This document shows positions 19,961 through 21,214 of a stretch of 64,000 bases of DNA, one piece after another. The notes beneath the pieces were generated by a model. It worked only from the letters and a program-made list of their open reading frames with translations, did not search any database and was not told the DNA's origin. The position numbers and the translations under genes are program-made. This stretch comes from Escherichia coli (GTDB lineage: Bacteria > Pseudomonadota > Gammaproteobacteria > Enterobacterales > Enterobacteriaceae), in assembly GCF_048403405.1 (NCBI RefSeq), contig NZ_CP183129.1; one strand, written 5' to 3'. The stretch's first letter is position 1. Each line of letters begins with the position of its first letter.

Positions 19961-19990
19961 ACAGCATCCGGCCTAATAGCCGGATGCTGT
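19961..19990 (-). terminator. Intrinsic terminator downstream of hcp, upstream of vgrG
   Basis: Perfect 12-bp stem acagcatccggc / gccggatgctgt with 6-nt loop; on the minus strand it is followed by TTTTTGTATT. Confidence 0.7.
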
Positions 19991-19999
19991 TGGCTTAAC

Positions 20000-20518
20000 T
20001 TATGCTTCCAGCGGTGCGCGCCAGTCGTCGGCACCGGAGGTGCCAGACTTGACGTGTTCCCACTCTATTTTGCGGTAGGCCAGTGAAACTTCGAGCAACT
20101 GGGTGAACTCGCGTTTCGCCGGATCCTGGCAATGCGGCATATGCAGTTTCATATCGACAATCGTCGAATCGGTCAGGCGGGTGGTGAAATAATGCTCCTG
20201 TTTGCCTTCCACAGAGGTACGCCACCAGTGAAGTTCAGTGGTTGGCAGCATTTCGCCGGAGGCCAGTGCGTTGTACATCAGCGGAACAGCTTTGTTCAGC
20301 GCCACGGTAAAAATGAACGGCTTGTGAGCACGCTGACCCGCAGGCTGGCCGGACTGAGGATCGGTCGGGACAGTAACGTTATGCAGGAATTCCTGCACCA
20401 GCATCTCGTCTTCGTGCCCCTGCACATAGATGTTGCCGACAGAATCAGCGGTAAATGCACCTGCAGTAATATTTCCCTGGGTCTGACCAGTGATGGAGAT
20501 ATAACACGGTGTTGGCAT
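20000..20518 (-). CDS. hcp: T6SS tube protein Hcp (TssD)
   Basis: 172 aa ORF MPTPCYISITGQTQGNITAG...; Hcp-family size and profile; first gene of the hcp-vgrG-rhs arm. Confidence 0.85.
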   Translation of the reverse strand: MPTPCYISITGQTQGNITAGAFTADSVGNIYVQGHEDEMLVQEFLHNVTVPTDPQSGQPAGQRAHKPFIFTVALNKAVPLMYNALASGEMLPTTELHWWRTSVEGKQEHYFTTRLTDSTIVDMKLHMPHCQDPAKREFTQLLEVSLAYRKIEWEHVKSGTSGADDWRAPLEA

Positions 20519-21214
20519 TTGTAAACTCCTTGTTAACGTGGTTAATTACTACTTACAATGACCTGCCGTTAATCCCAGACAGGCAGATGCAACTCACTTC
20601 ACGGAACCGCATCATTTTTCAGTATTTTTTACATACAAACCGAGCTAGAATTTACGGTTGTCGTAAAAACTATTTTTAAAATCATTAAATCTCTTATTCA
20701 GCAATAAGTTAATAATATATATCTGGATAACCATACCCAACTGTTCAAAGTCCGTATTGCCTCCATAAAATGGCCAAAGCTGAATCATGAATAAATATTG
20801 TATTTATCCTTTCTGAATTATCATTTTGATAATTTTTGAGATATTCCTTAAAAATACCCACTTAATCAATCACAAAACAAATATATAAACAAGCAATCAT
20901 CAGATTAGCTTATGTTTAATGAAATTATTATATAATTCAATAAGTTACATAAAAACTCTATATTTAAATTATTGCCATAATACACCTGACGCGAATTTCG
21001 AAGGTTCACACAATCTATTTAACGCTTGCAGAATACCTCTCTTTACGATCGATAAAAAGTCCTTTTCTTATTTATTTTGAAGCGTAGAATGCGGGGTGAT
21101 GAAGGAGTGGTGATTTTATTTTCACCGCCATTAAGGCGGCATTGCCGATATTTTTTTGCGGTACAAATATGCCGTGTTCATGGCCTGTACGAGATAACAT
21201 GACGGATCACTTTT
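20519..21214. promoter_or_regulatory. AT-rich ~700 bp divergent control region between hcp and tssB
   Basis: No credible ORF; long A/T runs; perfect palindrome aattatca-ttt-tgataatt at 20816..20834. Confidence 0.5.

Follow-up and report, generated by a model that had tools for sequence, protein, structure and literature searches.

T6SS-2 is the commonest type VI secretion system (T6SS) of E. coli. Two of its regulatory regions, h3R (the hcp3-vgrG3 intergenic region) and the bidirectional promoter t6sP, have been described in EHEC O157:H7 strain EDL933 (Vazquez-Lopez et al., Microbiol Spectr, April 2026; PMC13141884). In the EHEC wild type, the hcp3-vgrG3 junction gave no RT-PCR product. Deletion of region I of h3R decreased hcp3 mRNA to 6%, halved the amount of Hcp3 or GFP, and increased the downstream reporter; deletion of regions I and II fused hcp3 and vgrG3 into a single transcript. 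As reported, the EHEC terminator separates hcp3 from vgrG3 and also stabilizes hcp3 mRNA, with read-through into vgrG-rhs being cut and hcp mRNA and protein being raised (PMC13141884). Deletion of hns in EHEC derepresses the divergent promoter (PMC5363993), and the same deletion in EDL933 increases the abundance of tssB, hcp3, and vgrG3 mRNA (PMC13141884). In the T6SS2 of APEC, which consists of an hcp2B-vgrG2 operon and a divergent vipA2 operon (Ma et al. 2018; PMC5874247), inactivation of H-NS increases expression of clpV2, hcp2A, and hcp2B, iron limitation or fur inactivation has no effect on clpV2 or hcp2B transcription, and hcp2B and vgrG2 were found by RT-PCR to be co-transcribed. The EAEC sci-1 (T6SS-1) promoter is described as controlled by Fur and Dam, with Fur boxes overlapping the −10 region and GATC sites (Brunet et al. 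2011), and hcp and vgrG of V. cholerae are described as separately transcribed (Zhang et al. 2021).

We compared these systems with a 64,000-nucleotide stretch of E. coli DNA (contig NZ_CP183129.1), referred to below as the window. The region of interest is where hcp and tssB meet in the T6SS-2 island at aspV, with the following genes:

20000..20518, minus strand: hcp, 172 aa, the T6SS tube protein, called hcp3 in EHEC and hcp2B in APEC (open reading frame list and RefSeq)
17649..19790, minus strand: vgrG, 713 aa (open reading frame list and RefSeq), with a Shine-Dalgarno (SD) sequence GGAGG at 19796-19800
13071-17573: rhs, downstream of vgrG
21215..21715, plus strand: tssB, which opens the structural operon (open reading frame list and RefSeq)

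The hcp annotation comes from the RefSeq record of identical DNA in strain MS 69-1; its protein, WP_001142958.1, is also the EDL933 accession. The locus is orthologous to h3R/t6sP of EDL933, with the same aspV/yafV island, the same gene order, an identical Hcp protein, and the same 696-bp hcp-tssB spacer. The region is ~98% identical (97% in the h3R spacer), and the terminator stem and the palindrome considered below are identical. The window differs from EDL933 in its rhs C-terminal/immunity module and in a few substitutions in the hcp-vgrG spacer, one of which (GGAT to GGCT) falls within the conserved core of the vgrG leader; tssM and tssA are frameshifted in EDL933, unlike in the strain matching the window (RefSeq annotation). 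Conservation between species, covariation, and the palindrome are not among the results given for EDL933 in PMC13141884. The APEC T6SS2 shares the T6SS type and the divergent architecture. APEC strain XM most likely carries what we call the B2-type variant, because DUF2169 and PAAR genes lie downstream, as in L008; in this variant, hcp is only 83% identical to that of the window at the nucleotide level, the terminator stem is compensated, and the palindrome is missing. A genome scan seeded with TssB returned four loci only.

The first-pass annotation had pointed to three features at this junction: a terminator after hcp, a long AT-rich divergent region, and a palindrome within it. All three are in place; of the interpretations attached to them, termination and H-NS-type silencing were borne out, and a Fur-like role of the palindrome was not. 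The terminator with its two effects, on hcp and on vgrG, and the silencing of the divergent promoter by H-NS are real but already known, having been published for a near-identical locus. The hairpin structure, its covariation and strand specificity, the conserved AT-richness and spacer length, and the non-significance of the motifs were observed in the present comparison. For the window strain, which would be expected to behave like the published loci, termination, mRNA stabilization, and H-NS repression are carried over from experiments on the ~98% identical locus, and Fur independence from the related APEC variant.

The first of the three features lies directly downstream of hcp:

19953..19991, minus strand: Rho-independent terminator of hcp (stem 19960-19991, U-tract UUUUUGU 19953-19959), equivalent to region I of the published h3R

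The hairpin begins 8 nt past the hcp stop codon, and the minus-strand sequence 3' of its stem is TTTTTGTATT. It had been described in the first-pass annotation as a perfect 12-bp stem followed by a U-tract; the U-tract does follow, but the stem is longer. The arms (19960-19972 and 19979-19991) are 13 nt each, 100% complementary, and separated by 6 nt, and a terminator scan reports 14 pairs (13 perfect and one G.U; 8 G-C) with a 4-nt loop. These values agree with EDL933, where the hairpin starts from +8 of the 3' UTR and contains “14 base-base interactions” (PMC13141884); the EDL933 stem is identical, with one change in the loop. The predicted folding energy was −27.8 kcal/mol (z −5.14), and none of 200 shuffled sequences was equally stable.

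Comparison of 16 distinct lineages revealed strong covariation in the stem. Overall, 98.1% of alignment cells were paired, compared with 26-60% in slid controls, and compensatory changes were seen in 6 of the 13 pairs. The covariation score was 0.339 vs. 0.209 in shuffles, and 0.339 was reached by 0 of 500 shuffles. In the B2-type E. coli variant, for example, the stem is compensated (CAACATCCTGC/GCAGGATGTTG). Read in the sense of hcp, every non-Watson-Crick pair is U.G or G.U; thus, the structure is functional only as sense RNA. The U-tract abuts the stem, and T-runs follow the stem in most of 22 variants, being weaker (TTTC/TTTTC) in L087, L088, and L098. A dispersed hairpin of the REP/BIME type was ruled out, since the element occurs at one place per genome in 2193 genomes. 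Hairpins of unrelated sequence occupy the same post-hcp position in Proteus, Pectobacterium, Enterobacter, and Serratia.

The post-hcp hairpin is a genuine intrinsic terminator, with termination at the EDL933 orthologue published on the basis of RT-PCR, deletions, and reporters, and the proposal that it allows high hcp expression with less read-through agrees both with what was shown in the ~98% identical locus (PMC13141884) and with the covariation found here. The arrangement resembles intercistronic intrinsic terminators that set subunit ratios, in which a hairpin and U-tract after the most abundant structural gene cause the upstream product to be made in excess of the downstream one. It is unlike that in Vibrio, where, according to the EHEC authors, the split between hcp and vgrG is ascribed to a separate vgrG promoter under IHF/HapR and no terminator mechanism was dissected. 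The co-transcription of hcp2B and vgrG2 in APEC fits a leaky terminator, and partial termination may reconcile the conflict between the two units of EHEC and the single operon of APEC.

The hairpin could alternatively act mainly as an mRNA 3'-end stabilizer or processing barrier rather than as a terminator, with hcp and vgrG being insulated by vgrG's own promoter in the hcp-vgrG spacer. The severe loss of hcp3 mRNA upon region I deletion, accompanied by only a slight increase in VgrG3, is what such a role predicts, as are the promoter predicted in region II and the missing wild-type junction product (PMC13141884). We nevertheless consider this explanation unlikely: a U-tract immediately after the stem, kept in most lineages, would be superfluous for a pure stability hairpin; induction of a promoter upstream of hcp3 raised vgrG3 mRNA, so read-through exists (PMC13141884), as the APEC RT-PCR data also indicate (PMC5874247); and, as judged by eye, the conserved spacer block appears to contain no convincing match to σ70, σ54, σE, or σ32 promoters. 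A hairpin can be both stabilizer and terminator, and our preferred explanation assigns it both roles.

Transcripts passing the terminator would enter the vgrG leader, where three features were delineated:

19844..19934, minus strand: conserved non-coding block of the vgrG leader, within h3R regions II/III
19866-19910, minus strand: 45-nt universal core of this block, CGGGAGATGGCGGATGCCGGAAACTTCGGCGGTAGCGTGCCTGAA (also given as CGGGAGAUGGCGGAUGCCGGAAACUUCGGCGGUAGCGUGCCUGAA)
19809..19842, minus strand: weak, variable hairpin (19819-19842) and T-run CTGTTTTTCC (19809-18), delineated by alignment

The leader block is 90-97% identical to the window in Yokenella, Citrobacter, and E. albertii, and 86% identical in the B2-type variant. 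Its conservation thus far exceeds that of hcp third-codon positions, whose identity in the same comparison is only 55-73%. The block is present in about 10 metagenomic lineages, as well as in loci retrieved independently via Hcp. The core accompanies vgrG genes whose proteins are ~55% identical in Escherichia, Citrobacter, Yokenella, Salmonella, and unassigned gut lineages. We found no earlier description of this conservation, which extends beyond the level of synonymous sites across genera; the function of the core is putative.

Several readings of the leader were considered and rejected. In most lineages, 24-31 nt separate the T-run CTGTTTTTCC from the vgrG start, but a second terminator or attenuator before vgrG is not indicated, as the hairpins there (−6 to −12 kcal/mol) were no stabler than shuffles (mean z −0.22). 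Sequestration of the SD by the conserved U/C-rich tract is likewise not indicated: SD accessibility was the same as with shuffled upstream sequence (mean z 0.01). An upstream open reading frame (MADAGNFGGSVPE...) does not account for the conservation, since its third codon positions are no more variable than the first two, the length of the peptide varies beyond codon 13 (from 15 to more than 40 aa), and an insertion in L061 stops the frame, yet the nucleotides downstream remain conserved. Homology of the E. coli-type leader to the Serratia/E. ludwigii-type leader through a shared GCGGTAGC..CCTGAA was not significant in local alignment (P = 0.2). A search of positions 19500-21500 against Rfam at E ≤ 1 returned a sole match, a spurious RNase P on the opposite strand (12.9 bits, E = 0.24).

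Tentatively, the 45-nt core may be a cis-regulatory RNA, an irregular hairpin with conserved internal loops. A protein, small RNA, or ligand would bind it, and it would gate VgrG and Rhs effector production without involvement of the promoter that H-NS controls. Wherever only one side of a pair in the proposed core hairpin is substituted, pairing is retained via G.U on the sense strand only (U.G exchanged with C-G in 7 of 18 sequences; C-G to U.G). Statistical covariation was not detected in the core hairpin, the core being too invariant, with 19 positions fixed by the search pattern itself, and the RNA fold of the whole leader was no better than that of shuffles (MFE z −0.23). Partly on these grounds, the block between the terminator and vgrG might instead be read as a DNA-level promoter/operator of a dedicated vgrG regulator. 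Conservation far above the synonymous-site level would suit such an operator, and so would the two copies of GGCGG(A/T) in the core, spaced 20 bp apart, and the promoter and transcription-factor sites predicted in the leader by the EHEC authors (PMC13141884). This reading appears rather improbable, however, in view of the sense-strand-only G.U pairing and the lack of recognizable promoter hexamers. Moreover, regions I and II inhibit transcripts from an upstream Ptrc and are transferable to gfp/mCherry (PMC13141884), which points to a cis-acting effect at the transcript level.

Upstream of hcp, the following features were recorded:

20519..21214, no strand assigned: t6sP, the AT-rich divergent promoter region separating hcp from tssB, 696 bp
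20562..20583, minus strand: stem-loop in the presumed hcp 5' UTR, CCUGUC-UGGGAUUAAC-GGCAGG (read by eye)
20816..20834, no strand assigned: perfect 8+3+8 palindrome, AATTATCA-TTT-TGATAATT, in the unconserved middle of the spacer
21026..21092, plus strand: promoter-proximal block upstream of tssB, conserved between genera (phylogenetic footprint)

The spacer is, as first noticed, unusually long and AT-rich: its GC content is 0.326 vs. 0.524 for the whole window, with a low of 0.23 in 20800-20999. Both properties are kept across lineages (569-705 bp, GC 0.29-0.35, all examined lineages), while the middle ~380 bp cannot be aligned. The stem-loop in the hcp 5' UTR is alignable across lineages with altered stems (by eye, CCCGUCG/CGACGGG in the B2 variant and UCUGCCG/CGGCAGA in Citrobacter). 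The tssB-proximal block contains −10-like hexamers CAGAAT (21029-21034) and TAGAAT (21085-21090), as well as the motif AAAAAGTnCTTYTC; a promoter scan match in this block ends at 21034. The suggestion that this is a silenced promoter region agrees with published H-NS repression in EHEC (PMC5363993, PMC13141884) and APEC T6SS2 (PMC5874247), and with the low GC content kept in the lineages. The spacer contains four 8/10 matches to the H-NS 10-mer TCGATAAATT, one of them in the right arm of the palindrome, but 90% of shuffles reach 8/10. Since the 10-mer is not above background, H-NS binding rests on composition and the literature.

The palindrome is exactly as it had been described, a perfect dyad of ATTATC/GATAAT hexamers, and its count of 11 of 19 matches to the Fur consensus GATAATGATAATCATTATC is correct for the plus register (by hand; 12/19 on the minus register). 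The first-pass annotation itself had marked this match as weak. The dyad is not beyond chance: 17% of 2000 dinucleotide-preserving shuffles of the spacer hold an equal or longer one (perfect inverted repeat, arms ≥8, spacer ≤6). The best Fur 19-mer in the spacer, 13/19 at 20790-20808, lies off the palindrome, and at least 13 is reached by 44.5% of shuffles; the best match to the 7-1-7 Fur model (10/14) equals the shuffle mean. Scans of the spacer for Fur, the H-NS 10-mer, IHF, and the ARG box against 1000 dinucleotide shuffles were all at background. The hexamers are everted (ATTATC-N5-GATAAT), a geometry that is neither 7-1-7 nor that of a hexamer array. E. albertii and one E. coli sub-variant have a broken left arm, and the B2 variant, Yokenella, and Citrobacter lack the palindrome altogether. 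Its invariance within the main E. coli variant carries no information, as ~98% identity extends over the whole spacer there. The dyad lies ~180 bp and 250 bp off the conserved promoter-proximal blocks, in the segment that is unalignable between lineages.

The Fur idea has a precedent in EAEC sci-1, where the promoter region of an E. coli T6SS is likewise AT-rich and resembles Fur boxes, and Fur control is known for other T6SS clusters as well (APEC T6SS1, Salmonella SPI-6); the natural activating signal of T6SS-2 is still unknown in the literature. Unlike sci-1, the window carries another T6SS subtype and promoter, its dyad scores at background far from the promoter-proximal blocks, and the only GATC sites of the region, at 21047 and 21205, are elsewhere. 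Sites predicted in EHEC were for ArgP, CysB, CytR, Fis, LeuO, and NarL/P, with Fur not among them (PMC13141884), and the APEC T6SS2 that did not respond to Fur or iron (PMC5874247) is most likely of the B2 type, without the palindrome. That Fur or some other dimeric regulator governs both divergent promoters from this dyad is very improbable.

We consider it highly probable that the locus as a whole is a regulatory junction of T6SS-2 that combines a strong post-hcp terminator, also serving as an mRNA 3' cap, with an H-NS-silenced divergent spacer, the palindrome being incidental. Transcripts of hcp would begin in the AT-rich divergent region, and most would stop at the strong Rho-independent terminator. 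The hairpin would limit read-through into vgrG-rhs and cap the 3' end of hcp mRNA, making the message stabler, and the tube protein would be produced in large excess over the spike and effector. The minority of read-through transcripts would enter the ~170-nt vgrG leader, which may dampen vgrG expression further. The EHEC authors predict a separate vgrG promoter within the hcp-vgrG spacer (PMC13141884); if it is real, vgrG mRNA does not come from read-through alone. The 696-bp spacer would accommodate two divergent promoters, each near its gene, with H-NS on the AT-rich DNA between them keeping the spacer silent, and the 19-bp palindrome would be a chance feature of AT-rich filler in one E. 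coli lineage rather than a Fur operator.

To what has been published, the present analysis adds proof from evolution that selection acts on the terminator as sense-strand RNA across genera, the finding that Enterobacterales generally place a hairpin after hcp, and a clear negative for the Fur idea. If the leader core is indeed an RNA element, it would explain the presence of vgrG3 mRNA without VgrG3 protein in EHEC, even after a promoter swap. To our knowledge, T6SS-2 has never been switched on in vitro, since VgrG and Rhs are not made; the core presents a concrete target for mutagenesis and could open the functional study of this system.

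The DNA surrounding the hcp-vgrG junction was annotated as a type VI secretion island, flanked by yafV and the aspV side of the chromosome, which is called 'T6SS-2' in the Journet/Cascales nomenclature of the EHEC literature and 'T6SS2' in APEC (Ma et al. 2018, PMC5874247). Rhs, vgrG, and hcp are leftward genes; tssB, a 74-aa ORF, tssC, tssE-G, tagH, tssJ-L, clpV, vasI, tssA, tssM, vasL, and a second hcp are rightward. The following features were considered:

13071-17573, minus strand, rhs
17649-19790, minus strand, vgrG
~19844-19934, minus strand, conserved block in the vgrG leader, downstream of the terminator
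19866-19910, minus strand, 45-nt core of that block, single copy in the window, CGGGAGATGGCGGAYGCCGGAAACTTCGGCGGTAGCGTGCCTGAA
20000-20518, minus strand, hcp
21026-21092, plus strand, the only block conserved between genera upstream of tssB
21215-21715, plus strand, tssB

Megablast with 19700-21300 returned 100% matches among complete E. coli genomes, and at least 80% of this region was present in 2141 of 5426 such genomes. In EDL933 and the main E. coli variant, tssB and tssC are separated by the 74-aa hypothetical ORF (21750-21974, plus strand); the B2-type variant (L007, L008) lacks it, and tssC directly follows tssB there.

The stem-loop that the first-pass annotation had placed after hcp and before vgrG is present and is slightly better than described. 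Its arms (19960-19972 and 19979-19991) are 13 nt each with 100% complementarity, extending to 14 pairs, eight of them G-C, around a 4-nt loop when G.U is counted. The hairpin starts 8 nt past the hcp stop codon, and TTTTTGTATT lies directly 3' of it on the minus strand. The predicted RNA folds at -27.8 kcal/mol; shuffles gave -13.6 +/- 2.8, and 0/200 equalled it (z -5.1). Orthologous hcp-vgrG junctions were collected from E. albertii, Yokenella regensburgei, Citrobacter youngae, other E. coli in which this island has the diverged 'B2-type' allele, the remnant of an island in Salmonella Senftenberg, 120 metagenomic contigs, and loci retrieved via Hcp homologues. Each of the 22 distinct sequence variants forms a hairpin of -20 to -33 kcal/mol, 6-19 nt past the stop codon. 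When the outer 13 pairs from 16 distinct lineages were aligned with the inner loop taken out, standard pairs occupied 98.1% of cells, and both sides had changed in six of the 13 pairs (G-C<->A-U, U-A<->C-G, G-C<->C-G<->U-A). The covariation score was 0.339, versus 0.209 +/- 0.021 for shuffles (0/500), and pairing was only 26-60% when the partner was slid by 1-3 columns. Non-Watson-Crick pairs were all U.G or G.U on the hcp-sense strand, i.e., C.A mismatches on the opposite strand; since the wobbles pair only in the hcp sense, the hairpin is selected as an hcp-sense RNA. Each genome has a single copy of the element, which rules out a REP-like repeat. Hairpins of unrelated sequence occupy the same post-hcp place in Proteus, Pectobacterium, Enterobacter, and Serratia; thus, a post-hcp hairpin seems to belong to the general design of hcp-vgrG pairs.

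A full-text search showed that exactly this junction has been studied in EHEC EDL933 (Vazquez-Lopez et al., Microbiol Spectr 2026, PMC13141884). EDL933 and the window share an identical Hcp protein, an identical terminator stem (with one loop substitution), and an identical palindrome, the 1.45-kb region being ~98% identical by alignment. In that work, the hcp3-vgrG3 spacer was named 'h3R', and a terminator of 14 pairs was predicted at +8 (region I). No RT-PCR product across the junction was obtained from the wild-type strain, and in a promoter swap vgrG3 mRNA was induced less than hcp3. Deletion of region I lowered hcp3 mRNA to 6%, halved Hcp3 or GFP, and increased a downstream reporter; removing regions I and II joined hcp3 and vgrG3 in one transcript (PMC13141884). 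In APEC, hcp2B-vgrG2 were found to be co-transcribed by RT-PCR (PMC5874247). The 'two operons' of one paper and the 'one operon' of the other would both be expected from a strong but leaky terminator, which in our reading reconciles them. T6SS mRNAs increased upon hns deletion in EDL933 (PMC13141884), a derepression shown earlier by Wan et al. 2017 (PMC5363993), and inactivation of H-NS increased clpV2, hcp2A, and hcp2B in APEC T6SS2 (PMC5874247). Direct experiments at a near-identical locus have already established the terminator that limits read-through into vgrG and silencing by H-NS, both proposed in the first-pass annotation. In EDL933 (L002 5400-10382), tssM and tssA are frameshifted according to RefSeq; both are intact in MS 69-1 (L001 34602-39557), which is identical to the window. 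The frameshifts alone could account for EDL933 never secreting Hcp.

The hcp-tssB spacer, said to be long, AT-rich, and silenced, is indeed 696 bp long with a GC content of 0.326, versus 0.524 for the window, and a minimum of 0.23 around 20800-21000. Among 47 distinct versions from all lineages, it measures 569-705 bp with a GC content of 0.29-0.35; length and composition are conserved, sequence is not. Conservation in the cross-genus alignment is confined to the gene-proximal parts. The ~120 bp adjoining hcp include, on the hcp strand, a ATGTAAAAAAT motif (20624-20634) and a stem-loop (20562-20583) in the presumed hcp 5' UTR, whose paired stem, judged by eye, changes from CCUGUC/GGCAGG in the window to CCCGUCG/CGACGGG in the B2 variant and UCUGCCG/CGGCAGA in Citrobacter; this hairpin may serve to stabilise the 5' end. 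Of the ~190 conserved bp adjoining tssB, block 21026-21092 contains -10-like hexamers CAGAAT (21029-34) and TAGAAT (21085-90) and an AAAAAGTnCTTYTC motif and lacks a good -35; by its sequence it resembles a promoter that depends on an activator. In the tssB 5' leader, CGGCAU (21137-21142) can pair with AUGCCG (21169-21174) on the plus strand across a U-rich loop; in the B2 variant (CGGUAU/AUGCUG) both changes yield G.U wobbles. The central ~380 bp, palindrome included, could not be aligned between genera. The resulting picture is of two control modules, each near a promoter, with AT-rich DNA of constrained composition between them, and fits H-NS nucleation and spreading; the score of the H-NS high-affinity 10-mer in the spacer was not above background.

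The palindrome AATTATCA-TTT-TGATAATT is located exactly at 20816-20834, as annotated, but its reading as a Fur-like site did not hold. Perfect inverted repeats (arms >=8, spacer <=6) arose in 17% of dinucleotide shuffles of the hcp-tssB spacer. The palindrome matches the Fur 19-mer at 11/19 positions (plus strand) or 12/19 (minus strand); the best site in the spacer, 13/19 at 20790-20808, was equalled or exceeded in 44.5% of shuffles. Scans of the spacer with a 7-1-7 Fur model (best 10/14), IHF, and ARG-box all remained at background level. The hexamers are everted (ATTATC-N5-GATAAT), and by their established consensus Fur boxes are not built from everted hexamers. Nearly all E. coli of the main variant have the exact dyad, which is uninformative, because the whole spacer there is ~98% identical; E. 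albertii and one E. coli sub-variant have a disrupted left arm, and the dyad is absent from the B2 variant, Yokenella, Citrobacter, and metagenomic lineages. The palindrome is a chance-level feature. Given these scores, the patchy conservation, and the lack of effect of iron limitation and fur inactivation on APEC T6SS2 (PMC5874247), a role as an operator for Fur or another regulator is very improbable. All three annotated features are real, and two of their readings stand.

The conserved block in the vgrG leader, just outside the interval annotated at first, is almost invariant between genera. Its identity to the window (97% in E. albertii, 91% in Yokenella, 90% in C. youngae, 86% in the B2 variant) exceeds that of hcp third codon positions (73, 68, 66, and 55%, respectively), implying purifying selection at the nucleotide level. 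All lineages found carried the core (Escherichia, Citrobacter, Yokenella, Salmonella, and metagenomic lineages that are unassigned), including loci retrieved through Hcp, for which it was not used as bait: C. koseri L132 (one loop change), L133 (four changes, distributed over internal loops and one terminal pair), and Salmonella L138. The accompanying vgrG genes are only 54-80% identical to that of the window. Since loci L086 and L102 carry the core without hcp, it belongs to vgrG. Proteus and Pectobacterium loci lack it, as does an Enterobacter soli-type locus, in which the T-run and SD come right after the terminator.

In the latter (L134 2520-2587), TTTTTTCCTG and the vgrG SD come directly after the hcp terminator; the E. 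coli ~125-nt leader is missing as a whole, which suggests acquisition or loss of this putative module as a cassette. In L102 (~640-720), a metagenomic E. coli contig with vgrG 100% identical to that of the window, the upstream sequence is unrelated as far as GGGAGATGG, and the rearrangement breakpoint coincides exactly with the 5' edge of the core. In a degenerate island of Salmonella Senftenberg (L009 3720-4240), adjoining speF/yqgA-like genes, only a C-terminal remnant is left of hcp and a truncated start of vgrG, together with the terminator hairpin and the core; both genes have been outlived by the non-coding elements there.

A cis-acting RNA is, tentatively, the leading reading of the core. 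RNAalifold predicted an irregular hairpin (P1 CGGG/CCUG, P2 GC/GC, P3 UGCCGGA/UUCGGCG), in which all one-sided substitutions keep pairing through sense-strand G.U; there were no double changes, so that covariation statistics were empty, and 19 core positions were fixed by the search pattern. The core lies in h3R regions II/III, and the h3R regions containing it acted in cis to inhibit transcripts that came from a promoter upstream (PMC13141884). The main alternative, a DNA operator or promoter, is rather unlikely. As mechanisms, leader-wide RNA stability, SD sequestration, a second terminator before vgrG, and a conserved uORF peptide all failed when tested. Rfam gave no match for the leader block. 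A different ~125-nt hcp-vgrG leader, almost identical between E. ludwigii-type L139 (2020-2170) and Serratia marcescens L143 (2020-2167), contains GCGGTAGC..CCTGAA, as does the E. coli leader; homology of the two was rejected, the similarity not being significant (P = 0.2).

PMC13141884 does not mention cross-species sequence conservation, a riboswitch, or an attenuator, and the core sequence string did not occur in the literature searched. The core is a real conserved element, and it is the only lead at this junction that has novelty.
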